Source: a virus
Length of the DNA: 64,000 nt
IMG/VR virus record: IMGVR_UViG_3300022752_004319
Span: 1 to 64,000 of that record
Direction: 5' to 3' (one strand)
The notes below the pieces were generated by a model that ran no database searches, was not told where the DNA came from, and was given only the letters and a program-made list of their open reading frames with translations. Below are positions 44,506-63,509 of this stretch, in pieces; within the stretch, counting starts at the first letter, position 1, and each line of letters begins with the position of its first letter. Made by a program: the position numbers and the translations under genes.

Positions 44506-47484
44506 ATGGCTTATCAAAACATTAATCAGTATGTCAAATCAAAATTGTATTTACAACCTGTTTTACAAATTTCTGATATTTCGTTGGCTGCTGATGAGAG
44601 AGAATACAATGAAGAAGTTGTGTTTTCACCACTTATAATTGGCGCAAATGATGGTGATGTTTTACCTGTCAAAATTGATTTAAATTTTTCTGGATCCTCT
44701 CAAAAAATCAATTTGACTTTTGGTGATTACAAAAGAGAAAACGTAATCATTTCTGAAAATTATTATAATCCATACGATTATATTTTAGATTGTTTTTCTG
44801 GAAAAAGTATTTGTGATATCGGCTTGACTGGTACGGATAATGGTTTGGTTACAGGAATGACGGGACAGAGCATTTCTTACACCGAAGGACTATTACCAGA
44901 TAATACAAAATTTGATCGATTGAAATTTGATCGTAGATTGAAATTATTTCAAGTTACAGGATATACGAGCCATCCAAATCATAGATTTTCAGGAATAACG
45001 GCTGAGACCTCGTATGAAATGGTTTCTTATACCGCAAACACCATAGGAACTTACAACGAATTGTATGGAGGATTTTACCAAGGGTTTTATGAACTATTTG
45101 GATATGGATACAAGATACTACCTGAAAGATACACCAAAGGTTGGACTGTAGAGATGACATTGAAACCTAGGATATACAATCAATATACAACCCCGTCTGG
45201 TAAGACAACATTAAATTCATATTACCCCAATAATTCGGGAATATTTTTTTATATGGGAACTCGTGCCGAAAACAAATATTGGCATTTTGCACAAGGTACA
45301 AACCCAACAGATCCAAATTACGATAGAGTAACTAAAAGACTTTTAGATTTAAGTACTTGTGATTGCAAAACACTTAATCCTGGTTACTCCACAAATTCAA
45401 CGTCTCAATTTGATTTGGGTGTTTCAGGAGCAACAATACAAGTAGGTCAAGATTTATTATGGACATCAGGCGACACTTGTGTTGTTTATCATAACGAAAT
45501 TGCATTCCTAACTGGGAATGTTATTGGGTATACAGCATCGACTAATTCATTACAATTTGTTACGACTTATCGTGTGGGTAAAGGAGATTTCAAATATTGG
45601 GTTGTAGATAAATTAAATTTCTTGGAATACAATAATTCCGATTGTTATTTTGTTTATCCCCCAACAGGTGTTACTGATTATCACTACACGGAAAGTCCTT
45701 GTTGTCCAGATGAACCCCAAGTACCTGTCCCTGAACAGGATGCTGCTTACAATGGAATGTCTAATGCTTTAGCTATAAGATTTAGTGGCGACCCAACTAA
45801 CCCAAAAATTTGTATACGTACATTAACAATGACAGGTGATTGCATCACAAGTGGAAGTTGTGAAACTACTGGATATGAATCGCAAACAGGTTACTCAATA
45901 AATAACTATTGTACAACTAGGAGAATATACGATGATTGTAGTGGAACAACTTATTCTTTGGGTGAAAATTGGGTTTTAGTCGACGTTAGCTTTGAAAGGA
46001 ACACCGCACTTGATGAATGTGATTTGGTCTATCTTGGTGGATTAGGTGTAATATCGAATATGGTATTCACAGCATCTACGGATAGTAATTCAGTATCACT
46101 TATCTCTCCACCAATAACTCATTACCAACTAAACCCAGAAACAGAAGAACTTGTACAACTAAACAATGATTGGCTTCTTGAAAAGGGATTTCGGAAAGGT
46201 AAATTGAGAATTTTTGTTAATGGTAAGTTATTTGAAACTTTCGATAATGTTGAAGAAATAATACCTAGAGGTTTGTATGGACACAAAGAAACTCAAGTGG
46301 GTGTACCATTCAATATTTCTTGGGGTGGTGGTACTCAAGGATTGCATGAAAACCTAGTATTCAGTGCTATACCAACAACCGATTTGAACTATTACATACA
46401 AGATCCCGAATTGTTTCCACCAAATATTTTGAGTGGAACAAGTCTCAGTGCTTTAACAACAAATATTCTTATTGAACAAAACTTTGCTGGCACTTTTGAT
46501 GGGGGTATATCATCATTTTCTATGTATGCAAAACCTCTGACTATTCCTGAGGTTCAACATAATGCGAGAATACTTAAACCAAAATATAATTTTTTAAATC
46601 CTTTTTGTCTGAATTGTATTGATTCAACCCCAACACCTACACCTACAATAACTCCAACATTAACTAAAACACCAACAAATACTCTAACACCAACCAACAG
46701 TCAAACACCAACCAACACTCCGTCAAACACAGTTTCTGGAACATTAACTCCAACACCAACCAATAGTCAAACACCAACCAATAGTCAAACACCAACCAAC
46801 ACTCCGTCAAACACAGTTTCTGGAACATTAACTCCAACACCAACTAACACTCCGTCAAACACAGTTTCTGGAACATTAACTCCAACACCAACCAACACTC
46901 CGTCAAACACAGTTTCTGGAACATTAACTCCAACACCAACCAATAGTCAAACACCAACCAACACTCCGTCAAACACAGTTTCTGGAACATTAACTCCAAC
47001 ACCAACCAATAGTCAAACACCAACCAACACTCCGTCAAACACAGTTTCTGGAACATTAACTCCAACACCAACTAACACTCCGTCAAACACAGTTTCTGGA
47101 ACATTAACTCCAACACCAACCAACACTCCGTCAAACACAGTTTCTGGAACATTAACTCCAACACCAACCAATAGTCAAACACCAACCAACACTCCGTCAA
47201 ACACAGTTTCTGGAACATTAACTCCAACACCAACAGTTACTTGTGGTGGTGTTTTATATCCAAATTTAGGTATCGATAATGACCAAACAACAGCTTGTTC
47301 CTCTTCGGGTAATAATTTATATGGTATTAGAGCAAGTTTTGATGATCTGGTAAACGGTGATTTTTTATATTATGATGTTTGTCTTTCGAATATTTACAAT
47401 TCTGGTGGATATATTTCAAATGGAAATACATATGTTTTTAATTTGAGTCCCGGTGGTCAAAACCTAACTCTTGGTTCATGTTAG
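44506..47484 (+). CDS. Large putative virion protein: LamG/ConA-like body, mucin-like Thr/Pro stalk, C-terminal module (992 aa)
   Basis: LRIFVNGKL and FDGGISSFSMYAKPLT (LamG-like); about 210-aa T/P/S tract. Confidence 0.75.
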   Translation: MAYQNINQYVKSKLYLQPVLQISDISLAADEREYNEEVVFSPLIIGANDGDVLPVKIDLNFSGSSQKINLTFGDYKRENVIISENYYNPYDYILDCFSGKSICDIGLTGTDNGLVTGMTGQSISYTEGLLPDNTKFDRLKFDRRLKLFQVTGYTSHPNHRFSGITAETSYEMVSYTANTIGTYNELYGGFYQGFYELFGYGYKILPERYTKGWTVEMTLKPRIYNQYTTPSGKTTLNSYYPNNSGIFFYMGTRAENKYWHFAQGTNPTDPNYDRVTKRLLDLSTCDCKTLNPGYSTNSTSQFDLGVSGATIQVGQDLLWTSGDTCVVYHNEIAFLTGNVIGYTASTNSLQFVTTYRVGKGDFKYWVVDKLNFLEYNNSDCYFVYPPTGVTDYHYTESPCCPDEPQVPVPEQDAAYNGMSNALAIRFSGDPTNPKICIRTLTMTGDCITSGSCETTGYESQTGYSINNYCTTRRIYDDCSGTTYSLGENWVLVDVSFERNTALDECDLVYLGGLGVISNMVFTASTDSNSVSLISPPITHYQLNPETEELVQLNNDWLLEKGFRKGKLRIFVNGKLFETFDNVEEIIPRGLYGHKETQVGVPFNISWGGGTQGLHENLVFSAIPTTDLNYYIQDPELFPPNILSGTSLSALTTNILIEQNFAGTFDGGISSFSMYAKPLTIPEVQHNARILKPKYNFLNPFCLNCIDSTPTPTPTITPTLTKTPTNTLTPTNSQTPTNTPSNTVSGTLTPTPTNSQTPTNSQTPTNTPSNTVSGTLTPTPTNTPSNTVSGTLTPTPTNTPSNTVSGTLTPTPTNSQTPTNTPSNTVSGTLTPTPTNSQTPTNTPSNTVSGTLTPTPTNTPSNTVSGTLTPTPTNTPSNTVSGTLTPTPTNSQTPTNTPSNTVSGTLTPTPTVTCGGVLYPNLGIDNDQTTACSSSGNNLYGIRASFDDLVNGDFLYYDVCLSNIYNSGGYISNGNTYVFNLSPGGQNLTLGSC
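46690..47235 (+). repeat. Nested coding repeat: 9x48 bp (NTPSNTVSGTLTPTPT) with interspersed 18-bp units (NSQTPT)
   Basis: acagtttctgga at 46729, 46813, 46861, 46909, 46975, 47041, 47089, 47137, 47203. Confidence 0.95.
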
Positions 47485-47602
47485 TATTCTAAAATTCAAA
47501 AAACAACATTAACTAAAAGTCCTGAATAATTTTCAAAAAAATTATAAATGTTATTTATTTTAAAATTTAGAAAGTTATTTTTCAGTTAAAATTTACTTTT
47601 AT

Positions 47603-48856
47603 ATGAAAATATTCGTTCAAATTGCCGCATATCGAGATCCAGAATTGATTAAAACAATCAAAAGTTGTATTGAAAATGCAGAAAATCCAAAAAACTTAAC
47701 TTTCGGTATTGCTAGACAATTCCATCCAGATGATAAATTTGATGATCTTTCTGAGTATATGTTAGATGAAAGATTTAGAATTTTGAACATTCCCCACGCA
47801 GAATCCAAGGGTGTATGTTGGGCTAGAAATCAAGTACAACAACTTTACAATAAGGAACAATATACACTTCAAATTGATTCACATATGAGGTTTGCTCCCA
47901 ACTGGGACAAAGAAATGATTCAAATGATCAAACAACTACAGAAAAAAGGACACAAAAAACCTTTATTAACTGGATATGTATCATCATTTGATCCTGATAA
48001 TGATCCTGGGGCTCGAGTACAAGAGCCTTGGAGGATGGTTTTCGACAGGTTTATTCCAGAGGGCGCTGTATTTTTTCTTCCTGAAACAATACCAAATTGG
48101 CAAAGTATGACTGAACCAGTACCTGCAAGATTTTACTCAGCACACTATGCATTTACTTTGGGTAAATTCTCAACAGAAGTTCAACATAATCCCGAATATT
48201 ATTTTCATGGTGAAGAAATTTCTATAGCAGCAAGAGCATATACTTGGGGATATGATTTATTTCACCCTCATAAAGTTCTTATTTGGCATGAATACACAAG
48301 AAAAGGTAGAACCAAGCAGTGGGACGATGATAAAAATTGGGTGGAAAAAAATAATGTATCTCACTTGACAAACAGAAAGTTATTTGGGATGGATGGTTTA
48401 GAACAAGAAGGTCATACTGGAAAGTATGGATTTGGAAAAATTAGATCCCTAAAAGATTATGAAAAGTTTTCAGGATTACTTTTTGAAAAGAGAGCTGTAC
48501 AACAATATACCTTAGATAAAAACTATCCACCAAATCCTTACAATTATTCTTCTGAAGAAGAGTGGAAAGCTGATTTTGCTTTAATATTTAAACATTGTAT
48601 CGATATTGGATACTCTCAAGTTCCTGAACAAGATTACGATTTTTGGGTTGTTGCATTCCACGATGAAAATGATGAGACTATTTTTAGAAAAGACGCGGAT
48701 AAATCAGAAATTTCAAGAATGATGAACGATCCTGACGGGTATTGTAAAGTATGGAGAGAATTCCAAACAATACATAAACCAAAATACTGGGTAGTTTGGC
48801 CACACTCCGAGTCTAAAGGATGGTGTGAAAGAATTAGCGGAAATTTACCATTTTAA
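47603..48856 (+). CDS. GT60-like polypeptide/hydroxyproline GlcNAc-transferase
   Basis: IFVQIAAYRDPEL, GVCWAR, LQIDSHMRF (DxH), FHGEEI, WHEY. Confidence 0.8.
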   Translation: MKIFVQIAAYRDPELIKTIKSCIENAENPKNLTFGIARQFHPDDKFDDLSEYMLDERFRILNIPHAESKGVCWARNQVQQLYNKEQYTLQIDSHMRFAPNWDKEMIQMIKQLQKKGHKKPLLTGYVSSFDPDNDPGARVQEPWRMVFDRFIPEGAVFFLPETIPNWQSMTEPVPARFYSAHYAFTLGKFSTEVQHNPEYYFHGEEISIAARAYTWGYDLFHPHKVLIWHEYTRKGRTKQWDDDKNWVEKNNVSHLTNRKLFGMDGLEQEGHTGKYGFGKIRSLKDYEKFSGLLFEKRAVQQYTLDKNYPPNPYNYSSEEEWKADFALIFKHCIDIGYSQVPEQDYDFWVVAFHDENDETIFRKDADKSEISRMMNDPDGYCKVWREFQTIHKPKYWVVWPHSESKGWCERISGNLPF

Positions 48857-48868
48857 ATTTAACACAGA

Positions 48869-49486
48869 ATGTATATTTCCCAATTAGGTCAAGATAAATT
48901 TATTGACGAATTTTTTGAAAAAAAAGAAAATCTCACATTTCTGGACGTTGGAGCTCATGATGGTGTTACCATATCAAACACTTTTTTTTTAGAAAAGACT
49001 AGAAATTGGAATGGGATATGTATTGAGGCTCAACCTACGATATTTGAAAAATTAAGAGTTAATAGAAATTGTATATGTGTAAATGTTGCTGTTTCAAACT
49101 TTGAAGGTGAAACTGATTTCACATATGTTGAGGGATATGCAAATATGTTGTCAGGTATTTCAGATGAATACAATAAAACACATATAGATCGTATTAAGGG
49201 TGAGGTTAATCATTATGGGGGTGAAATAAATACAATTAAAGTTCCTGTAAAAAAATTACAAACAATATTGGATGAACATAATATGGTTGATATAGATTTC
49301 TGTACTATAGATACCGAAGGTTCCGAATTTAACATTGTTCAATCTATAGATTTTGACAGAACCAATATAAAAGTATTCATAATAGAAAATAACTATAAAG
49401 AAACAAATATCCAAGAATACTTGGAAATAAAGGGTTATCAACTCTATAAAAAATTAGAGTGGGATGATATTTTTATTAAAAAATAA
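48869..49486 (+). CDS. FkbM-family methyltransferase
   Basis: SQLGQD, LDVGAHDG, IDTEGSE, IENN. Confidence 0.88.
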   Translation: MYISQLGQDKFIDEFFEKKENLTFLDVGAHDGVTISNTFFLEKTRNWNGICIEAQPTIFEKLRVNRNCICVNVAVSNFEGETDFTYVEGYANMLSGISDEYNKTHIDRIKGEVNHYGGEINTIKVPVKKLQTILDEHNMVDIDFCTIDTEGSEFNIVQSIDFDRTNIKVFIIENNYKETNIQEYLEIKGYQLYKKLEWDDIFIKK

Positions 49487-49491
49487 TTGAA

Positions 49492-50304
49492 ATGAAAAAA
49501 ATAAATTTTTTTGACGAAAATTTGTTAGGTCAACCAGGTCTATCTAGATATCTATCACCAAATTTAGATTGGTGCCGAGAAACTAATGATTACGATATCG
49601 CAATTTATACTGATAAAATGTGTTTTTCACAAAAATTAGATAATTCAAAAATAAATTGTGCTTGGATTATAGAGCCACCAATCATTAACGTTGAAAATTA
49701 TCGTGACATTGTGATTAGTCAAGATAATTTTAAATACGTTTTTACACACAATAAAAATACATTATCCAATTTAAGAAACGGAGTATATGTACCTCACGGA
49801 GGTACATGGTTAAGAGAAGAAGATATTAACGTTCATCACAAAACTAAAAATTGTAGTTTTATTTTTTCAAACAAGGATTGGAATTCATACCATAGACTAA
49901 GACACAGAATTGCGGTTAGATTTGAAAATGACGATAGGGTTGATTTTTTTGGAAGTGGATCAAAAAACCCAGTAGAATTTAAAATTGAGGCTTTGAAGGA
50001 CTATATGTTTTCAATTGTTGTAGAAAATTCAATTGAATCAGATTACTTCACTGAAAAAATTTTAGATTGTTTTCTATCAGGAACTATTCCAATATATTTG
50101 GGTAGTAAAACAACTTCTAACTATTTTGACAGTGAGGGGATTATTTATTTTGATGGGGATGAAGATTTACCAAATATTTTGGAAACATTAAATACTACGT
50201 TATACGAATCAAAAATTGATTCAGTTAGAAAAAATTTTGAGTTCGCTAAAAAATATGTTTTCCCTGAAAAAATAATTCAAGAATATCTAGATCAAAATGT
50301 TTGA
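49492..50304 (+). CDS. GT10-like glycosyltransferase
   Basis: YMFSIVVENS...YFTEKILDCF...IPIYLG. Confidence 0.8.
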   Translation: MKKINFFDENLLGQPGLSRYLSPNLDWCRETNDYDIAIYTDKMCFSQKLDNSKINCAWIIEPPIINVENYRDIVISQDNFKYVFTHNKNTLSNLRNGVYVPHGGTWLREEDINVHHKTKNCSFIFSNKDWNSYHRLRHRIAVRFENDDRVDFFGSGSKNPVEFKIEALKDYMFSIVVENSIESDYFTEKILDCFLSGTIPIYLGSKTTSNYFDSEGIIYFDGDEDLPNILETLNTTLYESKIDSVRKNFEFAKKYVFPEKIIQEYLDQNV

Positions 50305-51061
50305 CAACATTGTAATTACTGGAGCAAATAATATTTACTACGAATCACTATTGACTTTAATTAGTAGTATTCATAAGTATGCTATCAATCAAGTTGATAA
50401 AGTACTTGTTTATGATTTTGGGTTAGACCCAACTGAAATCGAACATTTGAAAAAACTGAAACTTGTGGAAATAATCACAATTACCGAGGTTTTTCCTGTT
50501 TGTGAAAAAATTACATCAAAAAAAATCAAATCTCATTTTTGGAAGATGTATGCTTTACAAAATTCAAAAAAATTTGGTAAAAACATTTTATGGTTAGATG
50601 CTGGATGTTGTTTAATAGACAATATGTCATCTATTTATGAAAAATTAATAAATGATCAAATTTTTGTGGTTGGGGATTATTCTCATCCAAATTATAACTT
50701 TACACATAGTTTGTGTAAAACAATTATGAATGTTTCTGAAAAAGAAATTAATGATTATCAGATTTCATCTGGTATTTTTGGTTTCGTGTCAGATGGTAAA
50801 TACGATGAATTAATAAATAAAAGTTGGGACTATACTTTGATAGATGGGTGTATTGATGGATTTTATGAAAACCATAGACATGACCAAAGTATTCTTTCAA
50901 TATTGATTTCTAGATATGACTGCCCACGTCAAGACATTGACATCTATGGTTACTGGACAGATATAAATCGAGATTTAGAAAGTGCAAAAAATAAAGGGGC
51001 AGTTATTTTTGTTCATAGACGAGGTTACTGTGATAAAACAAATCTATTATATGAAAATTAA
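50297..51061 (+). CDS. DUF1647-like putative GT-A glycosyltransferase
   Basis: VYDFGL, FWK, LWLDAG, NHRHDQSILS. Confidence 0.6.
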   Translation: MFDNIVITGANNIYYESLLTLISSIHKYAINQVDKVLVYDFGLDPTEIEHLKKLKLVEIITITEVFPVCEKITSKKIKSHFWKMYALQNSKKFGKNILWLDAGCCLIDNMSSIYEKLINDQIFVVGDYSHPNYNFTHSLCKTIMNVSEKEINDYQISSGIFGFVSDGKYDELINKSWDYTLIDGCIDGFYENHRHDQSILSILISRYDCPRQDIDIYGYWTDINRDLESAKNKGAVIFVHRRGYCDKTNLLYEN

Positions 51062-51773
51062 TTTTAATGAAATTCCTAAATTTGTTATAAATTTAGAAAG
51101 AAGATCCGATAGATTAGATTTGGTAACTAAAGAATTTGAGTATATGGGTTGGGAATTTGAAAGATTCAATGCTGTTGATACGAACAGTTATTTAGGTTGT
51201 GCTTATTCCCATCAACAAATAGCTCAAATAATACTAGATAGAGGGTACAAATTTGCTATGGTTTTTGAAGATGACATTTTTTTTATGCCTTATACAAAAA
51301 AAATGATCCCAATTATAGAAGATGAATTGAATAACACTGATTGGGAATTTTTCCATTTTGCACCATCAATACATCGTCCTCTTTTGAAGTGGTCAGATAA
51401 TTTGGTTGATTTAACCAATCCACCACCAAAAAAAGAAAATCATAGAGAAATTTTTGGCACGTCTGGATTTATTTTGACACCATCAGTATGTGATATGATT
51501 ACTAAATGGAACACAAATGAGATAATTGAAAACAGCCATATGCAAAAACCAATAGATGAATTTTTAGCTTTAGCTGTATATCCACGATTACAATCTTTTT
51601 CAGGAAAATATCCACTTGTAACACAGAGGGCAGACTTCTCAGACATAAATCGTACATTTGATAGTAATCATTATGTTATGACTTATCAATGGAATGTTTA
51701 TTATCCAGATAAATTAGATAATCAATACTTGGATTTTGATTATTGCTTAAACTTAAGAAACAATGAAAATTAA
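51051..51773 (+). CDS. GT25-family glycosyltransferase
   Basis: Start re-placed at ATG 51051; VINLERRSDR, FNAVD, GCAYSH, VFEDD. Confidence 0.82.
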   Translation: MKINFNEIPKFVINLERRSDRLDLVTKEFEYMGWEFERFNAVDTNSYLGCAYSHQQIAQIILDRGYKFAMVFEDDIFFMPYTKKMIPIIEDELNNTDWEFFHFAPSIHRPLLKWSDNLVDLTNPPPKKENHREIFGTSGFILTPSVCDMITKWNTNEIIENSHMQKPIDEFLALAVYPRLQSFSGKYPLVTQRADFSDINRTFDSNHYVMTYQWNVYYPDKLDNQYLDFDYCLNLRNNEN

Positions 51774-52644
51774 ATTTATAACTTCTATCTATTCCGATTT
51801 GTATGGTACTGATTTTGGCGGTAGGTCAAACAGACGTGATCACTATCGATACAGTTTACTTTCATTGTTAAAAATGTCAGATGCTGACTTTTTGTGTTAT
51901 ACCTCAGATAGAGAAATTCACGATTTAGAAAATTTTTTTTACGAATTAAATTTTATACCACGTGAAAAATTGGAATTTAGGATACAAGATTTATCAAATA
52001 TTAAGACAACAAATTTATTGAATAGATATAAAAATTATAATGATGCAAAAGTATCTGACAGATGTATTGAAATACAATATTCAAAATTTCATTGGTGGTG
52101 GAACGAAGATAGAAGTTATGATTATTATTATTGGATAGATGCGGGTCTCTCTCATTGTGGATTAATTCCTTTGAAATATTTGACTAGTACTCATATTTTA
52201 GCGCAATACTACGAATCACCATTGTTCAATAATACTTTTCTTCACAATTTGATTAAAGATACGGAAGAAAAGTTTTTAATTTTGGGTAAAGAGAACGATA
52301 GAAACTATTGGGAAGGCACTGTGGATCCTAAATGGTATTTTGAATATGACAGATCAATACATATAATTGGTGGTCTTTTTGGAGGTCATCGAGATAGATG
52401 GGATGAAATTGTCAATTTGTTTGAAGACTATTCACAAAAAGTTACTGAGGACGCACAAAGAGTATATTTTGAAGAAAATATTATGAGTTTAATGTGGGTC
52501 AATCATAAACAATTATTTGTTAGAAAACATTTTGACATATGGTGGTGTCCTGATAGTGGTCCCAGAGATGCGTCACCAGAAATATACACACAAAATAAAA
52601 GTTTTTATAGAATTTTGGAGGAATTTAATAGAATTTATGAATAA
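51763..52644 (+). CDS. HtrL/YibB-like putative glycosyltransferase
   Basis: YSKF, YWIDAG, IGGLFGG, EE motif. Confidence 0.6.
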   Translation: MKIKFITSIYSDLYGTDFGGRSNRRDHYRYSLLSLLKMSDADFLCYTSDREIHDLENFFYELNFIPREKLEFRIQDLSNIKTTNLLNRYKNYNDAKVSDRCIEIQYSKFHWWWNEDRSYDYYYWIDAGLSHCGLIPLKYLTSTHILAQYYESPLFNNTFLHNLIKDTEEKFLILGKENDRNYWEGTVDPKWYFEYDRSIHIIGGLFGGHRDRWDEIVNLFEDYSQKVTEDAQRVYFEENIMSLMWVNHKQLFVRKHFDIWWCPDSGPRDASPEIYTQNKSFYRILEEFNRIYE

Positions 52645-54311: not shown

Positions 54312-54318
54312 TATTTAT
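54312..54318 (+). promoter_or_regulatory. TATTTAT putative late-promoter motif
   Basis: 12 nt before ATG 54331. Confidence 0.55.
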
Positions 54319-54751: not shown

Positions 54752-54758
54752 TATTTAT
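54752..54758 (+). promoter_or_regulatory. TATTTAT putative late-promoter motif
   Basis: 19 nt before ATG 54778. Confidence 0.55.
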
Positions 54759-54777: not shown

Positions 54778-57700
54778 ATGTCATGTGTAATCTCCCAAAT
54801 TGAAAATTCTACTAAAGAATTAGTAACTATATCATATACCAATTGTGAAGGTACAAATATTACTAATCAGAAAATAGCACCTAGAACTATAATCTCTGTA
54901 ATTTACATTCAGGGTACATTCAGTACCGCTTTTGAGGGTGTTTACATTTTGAGTACACAACCGTATGGGGTGACACCAACACCAACTCAAACACAAGGAC
55001 CTTTGACACCTACGTCAACTCCTAGTCAAACGACAGTTCCACCAACACCAACTGCGACACCAAATGTCACCAACACCTCGACGCCATCCCAAACACCAAC
55101 ACAAACACCAACACGGACTGTTGGATTTACACCGACACAAACACAAACACCAACACGAACTTTACCATTTACAGGTAATTGTGTCAATTGTAATTATTAC
55201 AATGTACAGGGAACTGGATATTTGACATACACAGCATGTTCTAGTTCCACAAATAGTTATGGATTAATACAAAATAGTTATATTGATACCCCTACAGGTG
55301 GCTTTATTGTAATAAATGCCGCTGGAACTCCACAAGTGGTTGGTTCGATAACAATTACACAATTACAACCTAGTGGTTTAGCTTGCGGTACTCCACCATC
55401 AGCAACACCTGTAGGTCCGACACCAACAAACACACCTACAAGTTCTCCGACACCAAGTACTGGATCTGGTCAAAGAATTTCATGTCTCGAGTATAATTTG
55501 AATACATTATCACGTGGAATGGACGAAGCAAATGTTAACATTTATTATACAGATTGTACAACAGGTCAAATATTCATTCAAAGTATGACACCGGGTTTAG
55601 AAACCACAATTTGTTCTAGAAGTTTTCCATATTTTACAGCAGATACAAAAAATGTCTTGATTAACACATCAAATAACCTTTGTGGTAATTTTGTGGTAAA
55701 TCAAACACCAGAACCAACACCAACAAATACTTTAACACCAAATCTTTATACAGTATATCAAGTACAAGATTGTGGAAATGGTTATTTTTACACCGTGAAC
55801 GTACCAAAGTATTCGGGTTTGAGTATTGGTAATATAATTTCATTCAATGATCCAAGCCAAACTTGTGATATTACAGGACAACCTAATTTAAGGTGTGGTA
55901 GATTGAACGCAGTATTGACTAATTATTATGCTGAATCAGTTAGTTATACTTTATTTGATAGTTGTGAAACATGTTCACCCTCGGTCACTCCTACTATGAC
56001 CGCAACATCTACTATTACACCAACTCAAACACCAACAATGCCACTAGATCCTTTGGATTGTGTTTCTTACATCATATCGAATAGTGGTGTAACTTCAGTG
56101 ACTTGGGCATATGTGGATTGTAATAATCTACAAACTCTTTACTTAAATGTCTCTCCACTTACGTACAATCAAGGATTATTGTCATTAATACAACCTGTTT
56201 TGATTTCTGGTGATTCATCAGTTACAAGTGTCATTACGGGAGGAGCTATAGGTCTTATTGTTCCGACACCAACAAGTACAAGCACACCGCAACCAACATC
56301 TACACCAACATCAACTATAGGTCAAACACCAACTCAGACTCCAAGTGTAACAGCATCACCAACACAAACTTGTTTGAATAGTCAACCATGTCAAAGATAT
56401 TCATTGCAAGCAATTTCAACATCTGCAGGTACATTTTTTGCTGTTTATAGAATTACACAATGTAATACTTTCACTCAAGATTGGTCTGTGAATGGATCCT
56501 CACCTGTTGAAGTGTGTTCTTTAACTGTACCAGTCTTAATAAACGGTACTGGTCTATCACCTGTAGTTGTTGGAACTTGTGAAAGAGTTTGTTTACCGCC
56601 ATCACCAACACCAACATCAACTAAAACTTTTGTAACACCAACACCATTTGTAACGTCAACACCAACACCTTCAGTAACTTGTCCTGGAGTTGGTGTTGAA
56701 TGTACTCTTAGATTTCCACGTTTAAATGCACAATCTTACAATCAATTGATAGCTATTGGTCAATATCCTGTAAAAGCAAATTATACTGGTTGTACAGGTA
56801 TTGCTGGGGAAATTATAATTTCAGCTAATACAATACAAGTTCCTAATACAAATTTTTATAGTTCAAATATACCAGTTTGTGTTTCGAATACTGAAACAGT
56901 GTTTCGTAATATGAACAACGAAATCGTAAATGTATTCTCAAATTGGTCCTCAAGTGCAGGTCCTTGTGGTCAATACTGTATTCCACCAACACCAACACCG
57001 ACAATTTCATTAACACCATCAATGACACCATCGACTTCAATTGCGGCAACATCTAATGATACAATTTTCTTATACTATGCGCAATCAGGTGATACGATAT
57101 CATTACCTTATATTCAAGGTGGTGATTACGATGGTACAATCTATTGGGGTGATGGAACTTCGTCGGTAAATAGTTACGCAAACAGAACACACACATACAA
57201 TAATAATACTGGAACATTAAGAAATCCTGATTTCCCAATATGGACAGATCCGAACAATGTTAGAAGAATTGTTATTGTCGGAAAAGTGTGGGGTTTTTCT
57301 TTGAAAGATGTACCTTTAAGTGAAAAAATACGATTCAAGGGCATTCAAAATTGGGGTAATTTTAGTTTCTATAATAATGATGGTTATTATTTCAATTATT
57401 TAGATTTAGTAACCGAAACAACTACTTTATTATACGGAATTGCTTTACCAACAACTGGTTATCCACTTTTAACTTACAGTGGTGGTAATATAACTAATAT
57501 GGAATTTGCATTTGCTGGTGCAAGTCCTTATGGTTACTCAACAACAACTAATGTTCCATTTGATGCTAGTAATTTCAATGTTTCTGGAATAACAAATATG
57601 CGAGGTATGTTTAATTTTAATTGGAATACAGTAAGTGGTCTAGATTACTGGGATACTTCAAATGTAACAAATATGTCTAAAATGTTTAAAAACGGATATA

Positions 57701-58848
57701 GTGGTGATGTGACTAGGTGGAACACCTCGTCAGTTACTGATTTGTCTGAAATTTTTATGTACATTGGTAATTTTGTATCAACACCACTTTCATTAGCTTC
57801 AACAGGATCAAGTCGTTGGGATGTTAGTAATGTTACAGATTTTTCTAGAGCTTTCTATGGTAACAACAAATTTAGAGGATTAAATAGTTCGGCGTCAGAA
57901 AATGATGTAATCGCGTATTGGAATACTTGGCAATACTGGGATGTAAGTTCTGGTGAAAATTTTGATGAAATGTTCAGATTTGCTGGTGGCGCACAGGATT
58001 TCAGTGGATCAACAGGTGTTACTATAAGTTATACTGGTTGGTGTACAACAAATGCACAACAATATTATAATTTTTCTTTTGGGACTGAACTGTACAAATT
58101 AAAAATTATCCCACCAATTTGGGGTACTTGTCCAGCCCCCCTCCCAACACAAACACCATTTGCAACACCAAGTCCAACACCGACAACTAGTATAACACCA
58201 TCACCATCGGTAACAACATCGGTCACACCGTCGGTAACAATAACCAATACCCAAACTGTTTCTCCGACCCAAACACCAACAACAACTGTAACTCCAAGTA
58301 ATTCGGTAACACCGACGACTACAAACACACCAAGTGTTTCACCAACAAACACAACAACACCAACAAATACCGTATCACCCACACAATCACCATCCATTAC
58401 ACCAACTAGTACCCAGACTGGAACACCACCACCATCAGGAACAAACTTCCCAACTCCAACACCGTCAGTCACAAACACTCAAACACCAACAACAACTGTA
58501 ACTCCAAGTAACTCTGTAACACCGACGACTACAAACACACCAAGTGTTTCACCAACGAACACAACAACACCAACGGTAACTAACACACCATCATCTAGTG
58601 GTATTGTGTCTTACACTTACACCAACTTAGGTACTGGCGGAAGTGATACTGAAGCTTGCTCAGAAAGTGGAAACACATTCTATGGTGTGAGATCAACATT
58701 TGCTGGTTTACAAATTGGTGATATACTTTACACAGATTCAGGTTTGACCACTGCAGCTGTCGGATTTAGTTATGTATCGAATAGTGTTATTAATTACCCT
58801 GTTGATGGTGGAACAGGTCAAATTATAGCAATCTCAGCTCTCTGTTAA
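54778..58848 (+). CDS. Giant mucin-like protein: Cys modules, T/P linkers, PKD-like and DUF285/BspA-like repeats (1356 aa)
   Basis: Repeated C..Y...YxxC modules; IYWGDG; WDTSNVTNMSKMF-type repeats; long T/P/S tract near C-terminus. Confidence 0.8.
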   Translation: MSCVISQIENSTKELVTISYTNCEGTNITNQKIAPRTIISVIYIQGTFSTAFEGVYILSTQPYGVTPTPTQTQGPLTPTSTPSQTTVPPTPTATPNVTNTSTPSQTPTQTPTRTVGFTPTQTQTPTRTLPFTGNCVNCNYYNVQGTGYLTYTACSSSTNSYGLIQNSYIDTPTGGFIVINAAGTPQVVGSITITQLQPSGLACGTPPSATPVGPTPTNTPTSSPTPSTGSGQRISCLEYNLNTLSRGMDEANVNIYYTDCTTGQIFIQSMTPGLETTICSRSFPYFTADTKNVLINTSNNLCGNFVVNQTPEPTPTNTLTPNLYTVYQVQDCGNGYFYTVNVPKYSGLSIGNIISFNDPSQTCDITGQPNLRCGRLNAVLTNYYAESVSYTLFDSCETCSPSVTPTMTATSTITPTQTPTMPLDPLDCVSYIISNSGVTSVTWAYVDCNNLQTLYLNVSPLTYNQGLLSLIQPVLISGDSSVTSVITGGAIGLIVPTPTSTSTPQPTSTPTSTIGQTPTQTPSVTASPTQTCLNSQPCQRYSLQAISTSAGTFFAVYRITQCNTFTQDWSVNGSSPVEVCSLTVPVLINGTGLSPVVVGTCERVCLPPSPTPTSTKTFVTPTPFVTSTPTPSVTCPGVGVECTLRFPRLNAQSYNQLIAIGQYPVKANYTGCTGIAGEIIISANTIQVPNTNFYSSNIPVCVSNTETVFRNMNNEIVNVFSNWSSSAGPCGQYCIPPTPTPTISLTPSMTPSTSIAATSNDTIFLYYAQSGDTISLPYIQGGDYDGTIYWGDGTSSVNSYANRTHTYNNNTGTLRNPDFPIWTDPNNVRRIVIVGKVWGFSLKDVPLSEKIRFKGIQNWGNFSFYNNDGYYFNYLDLVTETTTLLYGIALPTTGYPLLTYSGGNITNMEFAFAGASPYGYSTTTNVPFDASNFNVSGITNMRGMFNFNWNTVSGLDYWDTSNVTNMSKMFKNGYSGDVTRWNTSSVTDLSEIFMYIGNFVSTPLSLASTGSSRWDVSNVTDFSRAFYGNNKFRGLNSSASENDVIAYWNTWQYWDVSSGENFDEMFRFAGGAQDFSGSTGVTISYTGWCTTNAQQYYNFSFGTELYKLKIIPPIWGTCPAPLPTQTPFATPSPTPTTSITPSPSVTTSVTPSVTITNTQTVSPTQTPTTTVTPSNSVTPTTTNTPSVSPTNTTTPTNTVSPTQSPSITPTSTQTGTPPPSGTNFPTPTPSVTNTQTPTTTVTPSNSVTPTTTNTPSVSPTNTTTPTVTNTPSSSGIVSYTYTNLGTGGSDTEACSESGNTFYGVRSTFAGLQIGDILYTDSGLTTAAVGFSYVSNSVINYPVDGGTGQIIAISALC
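58270..58574 (+). repeat. Direct duplication of about 95 bp within the T/P tract (58270 and 58480)
   Basis: QTPTTTVTPSNSVTPTTTNTPSVSPTNTTTPT twice, 3 synonymous mismatches. Confidence 0.9.
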
Positions 58849-58874
58849 AATAAATAATTTACAAAAAATACAAT

Positions 58875-61800
58875 ATGAATTTTCAATATACTACTTGGAA
58901 GAATACACCCACATCAATTACTGATAGTGGACAATGGAACAGTGATAGTACCACTTGGGATCTAATTTCGATCTCTATGGGTAATAAAGACAGAACAGGG
59001 GTCTGGGCAAGAAACAATTGGATGAATTTAAGTATTCCATCAACAATTCAGATTACAATCGGGAACGATAGTGCTATTTATACAGTTCAATTTATTGATT
59101 CAACGAATTCTGAATATGTAACAATCCAACTTGCTTTAGTATCATCAACGGTTTCTTCTACAAATTATATTTTCGAAAAAACAGAAATTGTTGATTTTCA
59201 ACTAATACCTAATGAAGATTCGTGTAGTGATTGTTATACATGGTCATTAATTGGACAAACAACATTAAAATATATTAGTTGTTCATCAGGTGAAACTTAT
59301 TCAAATGTTGTATTGGGTACATTTGTTGGAACCGAGGATGTACCATATTATTTTATATCAGCGGGACAACCAGAAATTATCGGTGAATCTGATAATATTT
59401 TGTTAGAAAACACTGAAAATTTTTGGGGTAAAGTGTGTGGTAAATATAATGAACCAGTTACAGATCAAGGTATTTGTTACACATATTCTATTGTGTCGTC
59501 TGAGATTCAAGAATTTTTTGGTTCATTTAGTGTAAATTATCTAGATTGTAATAACACAGAACAAGTTTTAGAACTTGAAATACCATTTGATAGTAAAAAT
59601 AGTCCATGGTTAAGACAAATTAATTCTGTAAGATTACCTGTCATTTTGGATCCTGAGACCTCTATAGTTGCAAACATTTTTACAGATTACACTGTTGGAT
59701 TTTTACCACCTCCCGAACCATCACAAACACCTATAGTTACTCTTGGTGTTCCTTTTAAAACAGCTAAAGTAAGTATATTTGAACAATATGTGGTTTATGG
59801 TTGTCAATATTTAACATATACAGTAAATAGAAACCCATCTGTGGATCCAAGTTTACAGACTCAACTTATTACTTATGTTGATTGTAATGGGATCAGACAA
59901 ACAGTACCAAGAGATCCAGGTAGATACTCCACCTATATGAGAAGACCAGAATATCAACCAGGGATTAATTACGCTTTTGGAGTTATAGAATCACATAGTT
60001 GGTTTTATTCTTCCGTTACGGTAAATTATCCAACACCTCCACCTATAACCTTTACTAATATACAAGCTAGTCCTTTTGGATATCAAAATTTAGGACCTTC
60101 TGGTTGTACTGTATCGGTAGTTGAAATTGGTACGCGATATAATCCATTAAATAATGTGTCTGTAGGTAATACAATATCACTTAACATAATTTCTGGTTCT
60201 ACCATTGCAGGTTATTTTACCCAATCTGTGATATGTGGAATTGTTACGGATCTTGATAGTGCAATACCGTATGATAGTGTTATGATATCTGGATACAATT
60301 CTTGTAGTTCTTGTATCACGGTTCCGACACCAACACCTACCCCAACACAAACTCAAACACCGGGACCATTCGTTGTAACACCTAGAGTAACCGCAACAGT
60401 TCAATGTCCTCAGGGAATGGTTCCAACATATGTTTGGGCCGTAAGGGCTACAGGAAGATGTACATTCAATTCACCCTGTACAGCGACCCAATTATTAATT
60501 CAAGCTGATAGTGGTGGTATTGCACCATACAATGAAACAGGGATTGTATGTAATCCATTTTATTTATATTCTTTTAATGATGGAACTCCAGCGTCGTGGT
60601 GTAATGGAACAACATTAACCAATAGAAATTCTAACATAAAGTACGTTGCTTCACAACAACGCCCTCAACTAATCGGAGCCTTTAGTGGTAATAGTCAAGT
60701 AATTGATACAATTACTTGTGATTATTTATTTCAAACTTGGATTGTAGGAACAGCAAATCTAGATACAAATGGTAATTTATATTCATTTTTACCTTTCACA
60801 TCGGCTTGGCTTCCACAAATAAGTGCATGCACAGTACCATTTAATTGTAATGTGAATGTTACACCAACAAGAACTCCTCGCCCCACACCAACACCTACAT
60901 CGTGTGGTGGTACAAGTTGGGGTCAATATGTTGGAAATAGAATATTTTTCAGTAGAGCTGGATCTACAATAAATAGTGCACAATACGTAGCTTTTAGTGG
61001 TAGTCCACAATTAATTGTTGGTTCCTTAGAAGATGGAATTGTTGGCGTTTGTAATTGTCAATACCCTTATGATTGGTTAAATTGTGCGGAAAAAAATCCA
61101 GCATCAACATTAGGTTTGGAAATTATTGGAGATGGTGCTGTTACGTTTCAATTTTTGAGCCCAGTGACTAACCCCCAATTAGCAATTTATTCACTTGGTA
61201 ATAATCTAGCTTACACTGAATGTAAATTTTCAAGTTACAACGGGGTTGAGTACGTACCAGTTATGAGTGGCGGGACTTCACAAGGATTTACTTTATCATG
61301 TATAGGATCAACTTTTTGGAATGCTAGTCCTGTTTTATCAATAGGTGATGGTATTTCTGGTGCGGAAGCATATACAATAGTGCAATTTACTGGAACCTAC
61401 ACAAATATTGCACTTTCTTTATCAGGAAATACAACATATACTAGTTTTGTTTGGGGAATTCCTTGTAGTCTACCACCAACACCAACACCAACACCAAGTG
61501 TAACATCTAATTGTCAAGTTTGTCCTTGTTATACTTGGGAATTCAATCCAAACCCTGTTGGAGTTACAGGTACCACAATAGGTTCTACACAAACTATTTT
61601 TAGTTATTCGGATTGTTCAGGTATTCAAAGAACAATTTCTCTTGGTCTTGGTAATATAGGTAATACGTTCTGTATGGCTGAACCAGGTCCGACATATCTA
61701 CAGGGACTAACAGGATTTACATGGACAAGATTGGCCGCCTGTGGTACACAAAATTGTGTGGGTATATGTAATTGTTCGTCACCTAATGTCAGATGGGCTT

Positions 61801-63509
61801 CATTCCTTAGTGATAGTTATATTGATTTTAACAACGGTGTAACGGCATCAATAAGTAACACTGGACCATCTACCGCTGTAAGTGTTGGTCCTTTGGTAAG
61901 TTCTTTTTATAATCAACTTGATTGTGTAAAACCTGCAAATTCATCACAACAATTCCTGAGACTTGAGAATGATGGTTTATACAATATTAGGTTTTCATCC
62001 GCAGTATCTACACCATTGATGGTTATTATGGGACTTGGTTCAACAAATTTTGCAGGTACAATTCAAACAAATATTGGTTTTGTGCCTAATTGTTTAGACA
62101 ATTTGAATTTAAATTTAGGGACAAGAACTATAATTGGTAATAATGGATTTGGTATAGTACAATTTACAGGAACTGTTACTAATTTAACTTTCACATTTAC
62201 ACCACCTAGTGGTTCCACAGGTTCTGCGAGTGACTCGAGAGTTTGGATTTCATTTGGTATTCCATGTACTCCAGTCTCAACCCCTACACCAACACCAACA
62301 CTTACACAAACTATTACACCAACTAATACTCAAACACCACCACCATCAGGAACAAACTTCGCAACTCCAACACAAACAAACACTCCGACTATAACTCCAA
62401 CGATAAGTGTGAGTAATAGTCCTGATAGTAGTCCAACACCAACTCCAAGTTTAACAAGTACATTAACACCGACAGTGACTAATACACCGACACAAACATC
62501 TTCTAGTACTCCAGTACCTACAATAACACCAACCTGTACAGGTTCAACTCAAACATGTTCTACCTACAGGTTATTAGGTGGTGGTGGTGGATTTTCAACA
62601 TTTTACACATATTTTGATTGTAGTACTGGTGCTGCCATTTCAGTTGTAGTAACAACAACAACACGTGTTGAAGTTTGTAGTAGATTTGCTCCTGTTTGGG
62701 CTGTTGTAAATGGATCCTCAACTGGTATAGTGGTACTAGTTTCATCAGGATGTGGTACATATTGTTCAAGTTTATCCACAACTTTAACCCCAACACCAAC
62801 ATCGACTACTACACCAACCACAACTACAACACCGACTAGAACGCCACTATCAACATCCACACCAACACCCACTGTCACAAACACACCAACATTGACAGCT
62901 ACAAAAACCCAAACACCAACTCCAACTAGTAGTTTGGGTGCAACACCACAACCAACACCAACTAATACATCTTCACCGACATTAACAATGACTCCGACAC
63001 CATCACCAACAATTGCTGGTTGTACTTGTATTGAGTATTCTATTGTATCACCACCAGCTGGTGAGGCGCCTCTAGAGATTGGTTGGACAAGTTGTTTCAA
63101 TAATTCTAAATTTACATTGAGTAATCCGACCGCTTGGACACTTACATCCGATAAGCCAACCCCGGGTCCGTTTAACTTGTTTGCTTGTGAAGGTTCACTA
63201 TCACTATCGCCAGAAATTTCAAGTATTGAAGCAGTTGGAGAAAACGGTACTTGTAAATGCTTTGAATTCTTTATCAATTCAACTGAATATAATAAAGCGT
63301 GTAGAAATGATGTGTCGGTTTGGTACCAATGTTGTACAGGTGAAATTTTACAATATCAGGTCACAAGTTTGAACTTTACAATATCTGCTTTGAAAATTTA
63401 CAGTGTGATAGGCTTATCTTCTGATTGTGGAACTTATCAATATTTACCAAAATCTGTTTGGGTTGAATTAGGTGACAGTGGAGTAACTGAGTGCGGCACG
63501 GGTTGTTAA
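58875..63509 (+). CDS. Giant mucin-like Cys-module protein (1544 aa), paralogous to the upstream gene
   Basis: About 7 Cys modules, two copies of an IVQFTGT...GIPC domain, several T/P tracts. Confidence 0.8.
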   Translation: MNFQYTTWKNTPTSITDSGQWNSDSTTWDLISISMGNKDRTGVWARNNWMNLSIPSTIQITIGNDSAIYTVQFIDSTNSEYVTIQLALVSSTVSSTNYIFEKTEIVDFQLIPNEDSCSDCYTWSLIGQTTLKYISCSSGETYSNVVLGTFVGTEDVPYYFISAGQPEIIGESDNILLENTENFWGKVCGKYNEPVTDQGICYTYSIVSSEIQEFFGSFSVNYLDCNNTEQVLELEIPFDSKNSPWLRQINSVRLPVILDPETSIVANIFTDYTVGFLPPPEPSQTPIVTLGVPFKTAKVSIFEQYVVYGCQYLTYTVNRNPSVDPSLQTQLITYVDCNGIRQTVPRDPGRYSTYMRRPEYQPGINYAFGVIESHSWFYSSVTVNYPTPPPITFTNIQASPFGYQNLGPSGCTVSVVEIGTRYNPLNNVSVGNTISLNIISGSTIAGYFTQSVICGIVTDLDSAIPYDSVMISGYNSCSSCITVPTPTPTPTQTQTPGPFVVTPRVTATVQCPQGMVPTYVWAVRATGRCTFNSPCTATQLLIQADSGGIAPYNETGIVCNPFYLYSFNDGTPASWCNGTTLTNRNSNIKYVASQQRPQLIGAFSGNSQVIDTITCDYLFQTWIVGTANLDTNGNLYSFLPFTSAWLPQISACTVPFNCNVNVTPTRTPRPTPTPTSCGGTSWGQYVGNRIFFSRAGSTINSAQYVAFSGSPQLIVGSLEDGIVGVCNCQYPYDWLNCAEKNPASTLGLEIIGDGAVTFQFLSPVTNPQLAIYSLGNNLAYTECKFSSYNGVEYVPVMSGGTSQGFTLSCIGSTFWNASPVLSIGDGISGAEAYTIVQFTGTYTNIALSLSGNTTYTSFVWGIPCSLPPTPTPTPSVTSNCQVCPCYTWEFNPNPVGVTGTTIGSTQTIFSYSDCSGIQRTISLGLGNIGNTFCMAEPGPTYLQGLTGFTWTRLAACGTQNCVGICNCSSPNVRWASFLSDSYIDFNNGVTASISNTGPSTAVSVGPLVSSFYNQLDCVKPANSSQQFLRLENDGLYNIRFSSAVSTPLMVIMGLGSTNFAGTIQTNIGFVPNCLDNLNLNLGTRTIIGNNGFGIVQFTGTVTNLTFTFTPPSGSTGSASDSRVWISFGIPCTPVSTPTPTPTLTQTITPTNTQTPPPSGTNFATPTQTNTPTITPTISVSNSPDSSPTPTPSLTSTLTPTVTNTPTQTSSSTPVPTITPTCTGSTQTCSTYRLLGGGGGFSTFYTYFDCSTGAAISVVVTTTTRVEVCSRFAPVWAVVNGSSTGIVVLVSSGCGTYCSSLSTTLTPTPTSTTTPTTTTTPTRTPLSTSTPTPTVTNTPTLTATKTQTPTPTSSLGATPQPTPTNTSSPTLTMTPTPSPTIAGCTCIEYSIVSPPAGEAPLEIGWTSCFNNSKFTLSNPTAWTLTSDKPTPGPFNLFACEGSLSLSPEISSIEAVGENGTCKCFEFFINSTEYNKACRNDVSVWYQCCTGEILQYQVTSLNFTISALKIYSVIGLSSDCGTYQYLPKSVWVELGDSGVTECGTGC

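Follow-up and report, generated by a model that had tools for sequence, protein, structure and literature searches.

Here, we examined the first 64,000 nucleotides of the viral contig IMGVR_UViG_3300022752_004319 from IMG/VR (this whole stretch is called the window below; the contig has 131,753 bp and a GC content of 0.33) and focused on a seven-gene glycosylation operon at positions 47603-54307. We consider it probable that the phage encodes a cytoplasmic, mucin-type O-glycosylation of its own proteins that carry Thr/Pro-rich tracts (T/P tracts). This reading starts from what was observed in the sequences, namely the gene content of the locus, the family and fold of its lead enzyme and the genomic association of this enzyme with T/P-tract genes; from these we infer the acceptor, the sugar, the order of the steps, the location in the virion and the benefit to the phage.

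The seven genes are co-oriented, with gaps of at most 23 nt or overlaps, and lie between a protein of 992 amino acids (aa) and two proteins of 1356 and 1544 aa. These coordinates agree with an earlier interpretation made from the letters of the DNA (hereafter the sequence-only reading), from which an eighth small gene beside the operon (54331-54711) was absent. Related loci in the following list, and below, are the best 80 of 394 viral contigs that contained relatives of the lead enzyme; these 80 were 76-90% identical to it.

44506-47484 (+), 992-aa protein, candidate acceptor
47603-48856 (+), glycosyltransferase of family GT60 (Pfam PF11397), predicted initiating polypeptide N-acetylhexosamine (HexNAc) transferase
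48869-49486 (+), FkbM-family methyltransferase (PF05050, E 2.2e-20), possibly for sugar O-methylation; in 7 of the 80 related loci
49492-50304 (+), GT10-like glycosyltransferase, fucosyltransferase family, C-terminal domain (PF00852, E 1.6e-11); in 17 of 80
50297-51061 (+), 254-aa protein, no PHROG and no NCBIfam family; in 8 of 80
51051-51773 (+), GT25-family glycosyltransferase (PF01755, E 3.5e-15); in 32 of 80
51763-52644 (+), 293-aa protein, no Pfam, PHROG or NCBIfam family; in 44 of 80
52631-54307 (+), two-domain transferase, here HtrL-GT, with an N-terminal HtrL_YibB domain (PF09612, E 1.6e-14) and a C-terminal GT-A (GT2-like) domain; in 75 of 80
54331-54711 (+), 126-aa protein with the C-terminal end SPCC, no family in Pfam, PHROG or NCBIfam; in 59 of 80
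54778-58848 (+), 1356-aa protein, T/P linkers and Cys modules arranged as beads on a string
58875-63509 (+), 1544-aa protein, T/P linkers and Cys-rich modules with 57 Cys, no Pfam family

The product of the first operon gene matched PF11397 (GlcNAc) with an E value of 1e-65 (223 bits, cut-off 21), and among PHROGs it matched phrog_24687, a phage glycosyltransferase family, with an E value of 3.9e-168. NCBIfam had no model for it or for the 293-, 254- and 126-aa proteins. The profile assignment of 47603-48856, which the sequence-only reading had put forward as a check, therefore bore out its GT60 call. The PF11397 match fell into two stretches, the best of which spanned profile positions 91-351 of 352, and the homologues of phages XacN1, Xoo-sp13 and CM1 matched positions 1-350. 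The GT60 motifs recognized earlier by eye are present at Y10-R11-D12, G70xC72xA74-R75, Q90xD92-S93-H94xR96-F97, G203-E204-E205 and H229, and are conserved across 40 diverse homologues (35-48% identity). Among these homologues, D92-S93-H94 was at least 90% conserved and H229 invariant, which gives a DxH...H signature.

A structural model built with the 40-homologue alignment reached a predicted local distance difference test score (pLDDT) of 95.8 and a predicted template modelling score of 0.92. It contains a catalytic domain at about residues 1-330 and an extra beta-rich C-terminal domain at about residues 325-414, which is kept in homologues. Pfam detected no ricin-type lectin domain in the protein, only PF11397 and a weak GT2 match, and a sequence search of the PDB gave no matches. 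By structure, the closest folds were animal and Toxoplasma polypeptide N-acetylgalactosamine (GalNAc) transferases (ppGalNAc-Ts). In Foldseek, the first 22 matches listed (ranks 1-33, E 6e-11 to 4e-9) were all ppGalNAc-Ts, and the first other enzyme among the matches listed stood at rank 37. In VIA-align, ranks 1-29 were all ppGalNAc-T entries (Z 19.2-22.6, root-mean-square deviation 3.2-3.8 Å over 260-285 residues), and other GT-A enzymes had Z values of 17.9 or less. The model aligns to the catalytic domain of GalNAc-T2 from chain residue 136, and the alignment offset suggests that DxH and H229 correspond to the Mn ligands of GT27. In the model, the fold of the enzyme is closest to that of the mucin-initiating GT27 enzymes, in line with the kinship of GT60 and GT27 on which the sequence-only reading had relied. 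A review describes GT60 enzymes as polypeptide alpha-N-acetylglucosamine (GlcNAc) transferases that are related to GT27 and lack the ricin-like domain (PMC8724618; the sources cited here were accessible in part, and what is drawn from them is limited to those parts). According to the same review, the member that modifies Skp1 is soluble and cytosolic and works with a bifunctional two-domain transferase. A complex prediction for the GT60 protein with a 50-residue T/P stretch scored 0.00, which speaks neither for nor against binding.

The family is abundant, with more than 7,256 clusters at 90% identity and 4,461 representatives at 50% identity. Some representatives (P0122, P0123, P0125, P0134 and others) contain 2-4 tandem domains in proteins of 800-2,461 aa. 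A scan of viral contigs with the distant homologue P0264 gave no match.

The proteins that flank the operon supply the candidate acceptors. The 992-aa protein consists of an N-terminal domain (residues 1-702, 44506-46611), a 211-aa T/P tract (46612-47244) that contains 79 Thr, 39 Pro and 25 Ser, and a Cys-bearing C-terminal module of 79 aa (47245-47481). In the 1356- and 1544-aa proteins, T/P linkers of 12-121 aa alternate with modules mostly of 58-94 aa (a few of 160-362 aa) that contain 2-11 Cys; in addition, residues 907-1033 of the 1356-aa protein form a DUF285 (BspA-like) domain, and its C-terminal module resembles that of the 992-aa protein. This mapping agrees with the Thr/Pro/Ser tracts and Cys modules ascribed to all three proteins by the sequence-only reading. 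Thr outnumbers Pro by about 2:1 in the tracts. The pattern T-P-T-x-T-P-T is encoded 22 times in the 131.7-kb contig and the reversed pattern not once, so the tracts lie far beyond chance. No signal peptide was visible by eye at the N-termini of the three proteins, as had been noted before.

At least eight T/P genes are present in the contig, and others adjoin the tail sheath gene and a collagen-like tail fibre gene. Further T/P-rich proteins are encoded at the following positions:

67765-70533 (-), T/P-rich protein
76678-79197, T/P-rich protein
125805-128510, T/P-rich protein
130034-131753, T/P-rich protein

Among their domains are DUF285 together with a cohesin-like domain, a Fibrobacter major domain, and repeats of the SprB and collagen types, all of them cargo typical of Bacteroidota surfaces.

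The N-terminal domain of the 992-aa protein was found in 38 of the 80 related loci at 40-98% identity, and what follows it differs among relatives: some have no extension, some a short T/P tail and some T/P tracts that end in different modules. The tract DNA itself consists of near-perfect tandem repeats, including a 228-nt unit present twice with a 100% match (46770-47234). The closest relative, L002, has a mere 16-aa T/P tail at this place, a difference that may stem either from fast turnover of the repeats or from their collapse when the metagenome was assembled. The 126-aa domain is also connected with T/P tracts, since it forms the in-frame N-terminus of T/P-tract open reading frames (ORFs) in six related loci (L068, L071, L073 and L076-L078). 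Read-through from the 126-aa gene into the 1356-aa gene, which share a frame, was ruled out by three stops between them.

The association of the enzyme with T/P tracts also finds support outside this contig. Among the 44 of the 80 related loci with full flanks, on which the T/P counts are based, 42 had a T/P-tract ORF within 10 kb, and these ORFs usually abut the GT60 gene or come after the HtrL-GT and 126-aa genes. A scan of bacterial genomes gave at least 558 loci, of which 80 (36-70% identity, from many phyla and including finished chromosomes) were kept. T/P-tract ORFs, defined there by a tract of at least 40 aa, became sparser with distance from GT60/HtrL: their number per 100 kb was 5.7 up to 1 kb away, 3.5 between 1 and 2.5 kb, 2.95 between 2.5 and 5 kb and 0.36-0.49 farther out, with the reservation that simple ORF calling takes in some wrong-strand ORFs in high-GC loci and that some of these loci may be phage contigs binned into metagenome-assembled genomes (MAGs), such as low-GC Saprospiraceae contigs and L102. 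Thus, the density within 1 kb of the GT60/HtrL pair is more than ten times that beyond 5 kb. A T/P ORF within 2.5 kb was present in 17 of the 80 bacterial loci. Together with the distant jumbo phages described below, these counts address the co-occurrence of GT60 and T/P genes, which the sequence-only reading had put forward as a check.

The bacterial T/P neighbours include small proteins that begin with a leader of the twin-arginine translocation (Tat) type (RRxLLQALG) and whose long T/P tract is often followed by a hydrophobic anchor at the C-terminus. They were observed in Acidimicrobiia, Alpha-, Gamma- and Deltaproteobacteria and Acidobacteriota, and those adjoining GT60/HtrL are located as follows:

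L124:11608-12240, Tat-like T/P protein
L132:11548-12126, Tat-like T/P protein
L134:6825-7454, Tat-like T/P protein
L115:6940-7449, Tat-like T/P protein
L136 and L111, one locus each with a Tat-like T/P protein

Their architecture hints at glycosylation in the cytoplasm followed by Tat export. Three of four bacterial T/P proteins scanned had no NCBIfam model, and the fourth had a weak, below-cut-off TAT-target match. Gemmatimonadota encode, immediately upstream of GT60, a fusion of a PqqD-like (peptide-chaperone) domain and a T/P tract (L096:9314-9952, L091:8438-9232). Of 344 neighbour ORFs, we also scanned 118 (the closest ORF on the upstream side and the closest two on the downstream side, up to 800 aa, from 43 full-flank bacterial loci), among which PqqD was matched in 4, fimbrial proteins in 6, GT9 heptosyltransferase in 3 and DotU in 2; no flippase, polymerase or exporter was among the 25 commonest families of these proteins. 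Burkholderiales have a shorter GT60-family gene, 1-5 kb away from which a large protein with a long (PT)n tail at its C-terminus is encoded (L143:12270-15131 on the minus strand, L130, L133, L141 and L107); by eye, the N-terminus of this large protein resembles a VgrG spike of the type VI system.

In genomes G006, G009 and G010 (3.8-4.4 Mb), the sole (TP)4 stretch lies inside the gene neighbouring GT60, in G008 this gene holds four of five such stretches, and in G007, without such a neighbour, there is none; because the genomes were picked for having a T/P neighbour, these figures show the rarity of tracts elsewhere and not an unbiased rate. A phylum-wide contingency test was dropped because PF11397 was found in only 1 of 151 sampled genomes.

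Distant phages offer a further comparison. Only four records of the phage collection, XacN1, Xoo-sp13, CM1 and RAS14, have homologues of the GT60 protein at 45-48% identity (48% for XacN1, where it is ORF334), and XacN1 ORF325 and ORF350, near the homologue, carry T/P tracts. Ten large phage genomes were searched for (TP)4, and since this pattern proved a narrow proxy, with 0 matches in the contig studied here, the comparison was repeated with T-P-T-x-T-P-T. The three genomes with PF11397, which belong to one clade (DNA polymerases 68-79% identical), contained 5, 8 and 3 (TP)4 and 51, 51 and 22 T-P-T-x-T-P-T stretches, and the seven without PF11397 (2.58 Mb in total, one of them a Xanthomonas jumbo phage) contained 0 of either; reversed-pattern controls gave 0-3. 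The stretches in XacN1, Xoo-sp13 and CM1 are mostly T-P-T-(I/V)-T-P-T, clustered in several genes, and this sequence may represent an acceptor motif. XacN1 has only two phage glycosyltransferases, one of which is the GT60 homologue, and is reported to have at least two virion glycoproteins (PMC5852040).

A promoter-like motif is shared by the operon, T/P genes and tail genes. TATTTAT was found at these positions:

44495-44501 (+), 4 nt before the 992-aa gene
47552-47558, before the GT60 gene
54312-54318, before the 126-aa gene
54752-54758, before the 1356-aa gene

In sense orientation, (A/G)TATTTAT occurs within 60 nt upstream of 21 of the 93 contig genes, compared with 3 of 93 for the reverse complement and a median of 4 for motif permutations. 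The 21 genes include the tail sheath gene, five T/P genes, the 126-aa gene and the GT60 operon, as well as two large genes of a downstream, apparently structural region, one of which has no family match. This distribution suggests that they form one expression class. The T4 late promoter TATAAATA was also considered. With 10.4 expected, the window contains 11 copies, one of them 23 nt upstream of the 992-aa gene. Because this sequence is not enriched, it was dropped and TATTTAT was preferred.

The remaining operon genes would serve chain extension. The sequence-only reading had assigned GT10, GT25, HtrL and FkbM, all of which were supported by Pfam, and DUF1647 (PF07801), which was unsupported in the product of 50297-51061 (E 0.015, 15.5 bits versus a cut-off of 25.7). 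HtrL-GT is a member of PF09612 (54.6 bits, cut-off 24.1) and not of the NCBIfam equivalog TIGR02192 (68.7 bits, cut-off 264.9); it has a second GT-A-like domain that Escherichia coli YibB lacks, had no PDB match by sequence, and fell in Atlas clusters of HtrL, GT2 and Glyco_transf_7C. Among the 80 bacterial loci, about 38 have its gene as well, in many cases directly beside GT60. The 293-aa protein shows a weak colinear match to the HtrL domain around GGxFGG (E 0.017), and by eye the translations of both proteins share a WIDAG motif; the 293-aa protein could therefore be an HtrL-like paralogue of distant origin. Gene starts are uncertain for GT25 (50982 GTG, 51042 or 51051 ATG) and HtrL-GT (52517 TTG, 52568 or 52631 ATG).

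Across the 80 related loci, the conserved order is a divergent 270-aa gene, the 992-aa N-domain, GT60, a variable cassette, HtrL-GT, the 126-aa gene and the gene that starts at 63605 in the window. The conserved core consists of the 992-aa N-domain, GT60, the variable glycosyltransferase cassette, HtrL-GT and the 126-aa gene. Conservation does not extend to the 1356/1544-aa pair as neighbours of GT60: by tblastn, the two genes were found in 7 and 0 of the 80 related loci, respectively. Two further contigs, L166 and L167, have the 1356-aa gene in the same gene order and 1544-aa homologues (63-80% identity) in the same position. The sequence-only reading was thus supported in part, for the GT60 family, the DxH...H signature, the GT27-like fold and the T/P linkage, and was unsupported for DUF1647.

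A second group of sugar genes was recognized in the window by Pfam matches:

21507-39372 (-), second sugar gene cluster, about 18 kb

Its transferases are several GT2-family proteins, one GT4 domain, GT10 and two GT11-like proteins, and its other enzymes are three FkbM, two epimerase/dehydratases, a UDP-sugar dehydrogenase (UDP, uridine diphosphate), an aminotransferase and a phosphoheptose-isomerase-like fusion. By these family assignments, the cluster is likely to supply and extend sugars.

The pathway that we propose would begin with the soluble GT60 enzyme, which would move the first sugar, by family analogy GlcNAc or another HexNAc, from a UDP-sugar to Thr/Ser of the phage T/P tracts. The acceptors would be the 992-aa protein, the 1356- and 1544-aa proteins and probably other T/P-tract proteins of the contig. 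HtrL-GT would add the next sugar or sugars, the lineage-variable cassette (GT10-like, GT25, the HtrL-like paralogue and the 254-aa protein) would lengthen the chain, and FkbM would methylate it; unusual nucleotide sugars would be provided by the 21-39 kb cluster. Because the acceptors are without signal peptides, all steps would take place before lysis. The resulting proteins would be modular and fibre-like and would most likely form appendages of the particle, and their sugar-coated stalks may be stiff, protease-resistant and antigenically variable.

On the other hand, several observations weigh against this account. The glycan on the phage proteins is itself a prediction from genes and models. 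The operon sits between replication genes and outside any tail module, and the 992-, 1356- and 1544-aa proteins match no known virion protein family. The model of the 992-aa N-domain, built from a 23-row alignment, had a pLDDT of 36.9 and was unusable. Two of the 44 full-flank phage loci, including the closest relative L002, have no T/P ORF within 10 kb, and adjacency within the lineage is weak evidence alone because T/P genes are frequent throughout it. Among the bacterial loci, 63 of 80 have no T/P ORF within 2.5 kb. Since the PF11397-positive cultured phages form one clade, the split of three versus seven genomes amounts to about one independent event. The C-terminal domain of HtrL-GT matched phrog_842 (beta-glucosyl-HMC-alpha-glucosyltransferase, a DNA-sugar transferase family; HMC, hydroxymethylcytosine) with an E value of 3.9e-5 and TAGT with 0.045. 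Finally, GT25, HtrL_YibB, GT10 and GT11 are best known from lipooligosaccharide loci, where they are typical of the outer core (PMC4172580).

These lipooligosaccharide-type families raise the possibility that the operon and the 21-39 kb cluster make or remodel a non-protein glycan, such as host lipooligosaccharide, capsule or another surface polymer, for superinfection exclusion or host takeover, with the T/P tracts being plain flexible linkers. The minus-strand cluster is of the size of a capsule locus, and the GT9 heptosyltransferase among the bacterial neighbour proteins would also fit. However, no flippase, polymerase, ABC exporter or initiating phosphoglycosyl transferase was found among the Pfam matches of the 8 operon proteins and 30 other window proteins, the closest solved folds of the lead enzyme are polypeptide transferases, and the enrichment of T/P genes near GT60/HtrL in both bacteria and phages would be left unexplained. 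We therefore regard a non-protein glycan as unlikely.

If the acceptor is a polypeptide, as the family and fold indicate, it might still be something other than the T/P proteins of the particle, for instance host proteins modified at takeover or non-structural phage proteins. The virion place of the T/P proteins is deduced, and the position of the operon among replication genes would suit such targets. Yet the T/P tracts track the enzyme across phages and bacteria, the T/P genes and the operon share their upstream motif with tail genes, and other T/P proteins of the contig adjoin the tail sheath and collagen-like tail fibre genes. We judge this explanation to be quite improbable.

A third possibility concerns the acceptor residue: as with Gnt1 of Skp1, the tract prolines might first be hydroxylated and the sugar placed on hydroxyproline instead of Thr/Ser. 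PF11397 centres on the Skp1 hydroxyproline GlcNAc-transferase, and the tracts are rich in Pro. The cytosolic location of the Skp1 enzyme (PMC8724618) fits as well, and one relative, 98% complete, encodes two domains of the 2OG-Fe(II) oxygenase type (2OG, 2-oxoglutarate). However, PF13640 was absent from this contig and from four of five relatives, including a 100%-complete one that keeps GT60, and Thr is about twice as frequent as Pro in the tracts. Because prolyl-hydroxylase-type domains occur in one of five relatives and not in this contig, a hydroxyproline acceptor has in our view a very small chance of being correct.

DNA as the target had to be considered because the C-terminal half of HtrL-GT weakly resembles DNA-sugar transferases; under this explanation the transferases would hypermodify phage DNA with sugars to escape restriction, as in T-even and other 5-hydroxymethylcytosine-glycosylating phages. 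The phage is T4-like, the operon adjoins a dUTPase gene and a candidate family-B DNA polymerase gene, and phage GT-A enzymes that glycosylate DNA are known (bioRxiv 10.1101/2023.12.21.572611). This is the least probable of the four, since the systems described so far come with a hydroxymethylase of the thymidylate-synthase type or a TET-like dioxygenase (same preprint), PF00303 is present in three of five relatives but absent from the 98%-complete relative G001 and from this contig (44% complete), PF12851 was found in none of five genomes in a search whose controls were silent, bacterial chromosomes contain the GT60/HtrL pair as well, next to T/P proteins, and the structural neighbours of the lead enzyme are polypeptide transferases.

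Mucin-type glycosylation of phage T/P proteins, the account that we favour, can be compared with several known systems. The protist GT60 enzymes (the mucin initiators of Dictyostelium and Trypanosoma cruzi, and Skp1 Gnt1) share with the phage enzyme PF11397, the DxH...H signature and the lack of a ricin-type domain. Like them, the phage enzyme is soluble, without a signal anchor, and has Thr/Pro-rich candidate acceptors; HtrL-GT would parallel the bifunctional partner of the Skp1 pathway (PMC8724618). It differs in its phage or bacterial source, in the extra beta-rich C-terminal domain and in that its activity is predicted; no characterised GT60 was found in the PDB by sequence. In the accessible part of the same review, GT60 enzymes are treated as a protist family. 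The GT27 ppGalNAc-Ts, the closest solved folds, have the same type of metal-binding motif and act on Thr/Pro-rich mucin tracts, but their identity to the phage enzyme is 11-14% in VIA-align (10-15% in Foldseek), and they are Golgi membrane proteins with a ricin-like lectin domain.

Among phages, mycobacteriophages use their own transferases to glycosylate particle proteins in the host (Freeman et al., 2023, via PMC12619734). The acceptors there are the C-termini of capsid and tail-tube subunits, whereas here they would be modular giant proteins; the gp23-like capsid protein of this contig has a T+P+S fraction of 0.19 and no tract, and so does not resemble a capsid acceptor of the mycobacteriophage type. 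XacN1 and its relatives Xoo-sp13 and Stenotrophomonas phages CM1/RAS14 represent a different phage lineage with different hosts, in which the neighbours of the GT60 homologue are a carbamoyltransferase and GT9, not GT10, GT25 or FkbM. In the accessible part of their paper, the authors of the XacN1 genome drew no link from the enzyme to T/P tracts or to GT60 (PMC5852040). No paper describing the present GT60-Thr/Pro system was found in a literature search that covered few subscription journals.

Stepwise glycosylation in the bacterial cytoplasm is known from the serine-rich-repeat adhesins, in which GtfA/GtfB initiates with O-HexNAc on long Ser/Thr repeats and transferases encoded nearby lengthen the chain step by step before export. 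GtfA/GtfB are GT-B (GT4) initiators associated with accessory Sec export and have no homology to the phage enzymes. By analogy, the bacterial Tat-leader T/P proteins beside GT60/HtrL suggest a parallel to this adhesin system. Chloroviruses and giant viruses also glycosylate, but they are eukaryotic viruses with other enzyme families and linkages. Their own transferases and sugar-nucleotide enzymes act in the cytoplasm on particle proteins (via PMC5852040).

A wider hypothesis, which we offer tentatively as possible and no more than that, is a widespread prokaryotic and phage pathway that makes true mucin-like glycoproteins in the cytoplasm, with a GT60-type initiator and an HtrL-GT extender acting on T/P tracts. 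Jumbo phages would combine it with a fast-changing extender cassette and hence vary the sugar coat of their appendages, and bacteria would apply it to small Tat-exported T/P proteins, PqqD-fused T/P proteins and perhaps the tails of type VI spikes. In eukaryotes, mucin-type and Skp1 glycosylation could have their prokaryotic root in this pair of initiator and bifunctional extender. If the proposals are true, abundant environmental jumbo phages coat their own proteins with self-made mucin-type sugars, and the enzyme pair marks a new class of bacterial Thr/Pro glycoproteins. Consequences would follow for host recognition, survival and antigenic variation of phages and for the question of how eukaryotic mucin-type glycosylation arose. 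The cultured phages XacN1, Xoo-sp13 and CM1 carry both the enzyme and the tracts, which makes the idea directly testable.

As for the source of the window, it is part of a single viral contig whose completeness was given as 44% by CheckV, and which, judged from its genes, is that of a T4-like myophage. The relevant features are:

3157-4926, large terminase gene
4957-7758, gp20-type portal gene, with an intein splicing domain and HNH nuclease (residues ~107-412) followed by the portal domain (412-811)
11931-13793, gp23-type major capsid protein, 620 aa, recognized by Pfam and PHROG
43651-44463 (-), 270-aa conserved divergent neighbour, no family match; in 30 of the 80 related loci, always upstream and on the opposite strand

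The tail sheath gene lies further along the same contig. The terminase was at most 30% identical to every record of the phage collection, and the nearest terminases belong to two uncultured huge phages, a Microcystis phage and Flavobacterium phages. Related contigs have 295-321 kb, and the contig is therefore a fragment of a jumbo phage. Around the operon, an exonuclease-like gene and the dUTPase gene lie upstream and the gene from 63605 onward lies downstream; the latter, the candidate family-B DNA polymerase as read by eye from the translation, was found in 53 of the 80 related loci. In bacterial bins, the closest homologues of the GT60 gene came from Saprospiraceae MAGs, which, together with the Bacteroidota-type cargo domains, gives a hint of a Bacteroidota host.

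The 992-aa protein matched no Pfam family, a profile search of the PDB with its N-domain gave 0 matches, and in the Atlas the N-domain yielded LamG-like leads alone, below 0.9. In the gp23-type capsid protein, the best-scoring of two Pfam/PHROG stretches begins only at residue 365, and the protein may have a long N-terminal extension or insertion.

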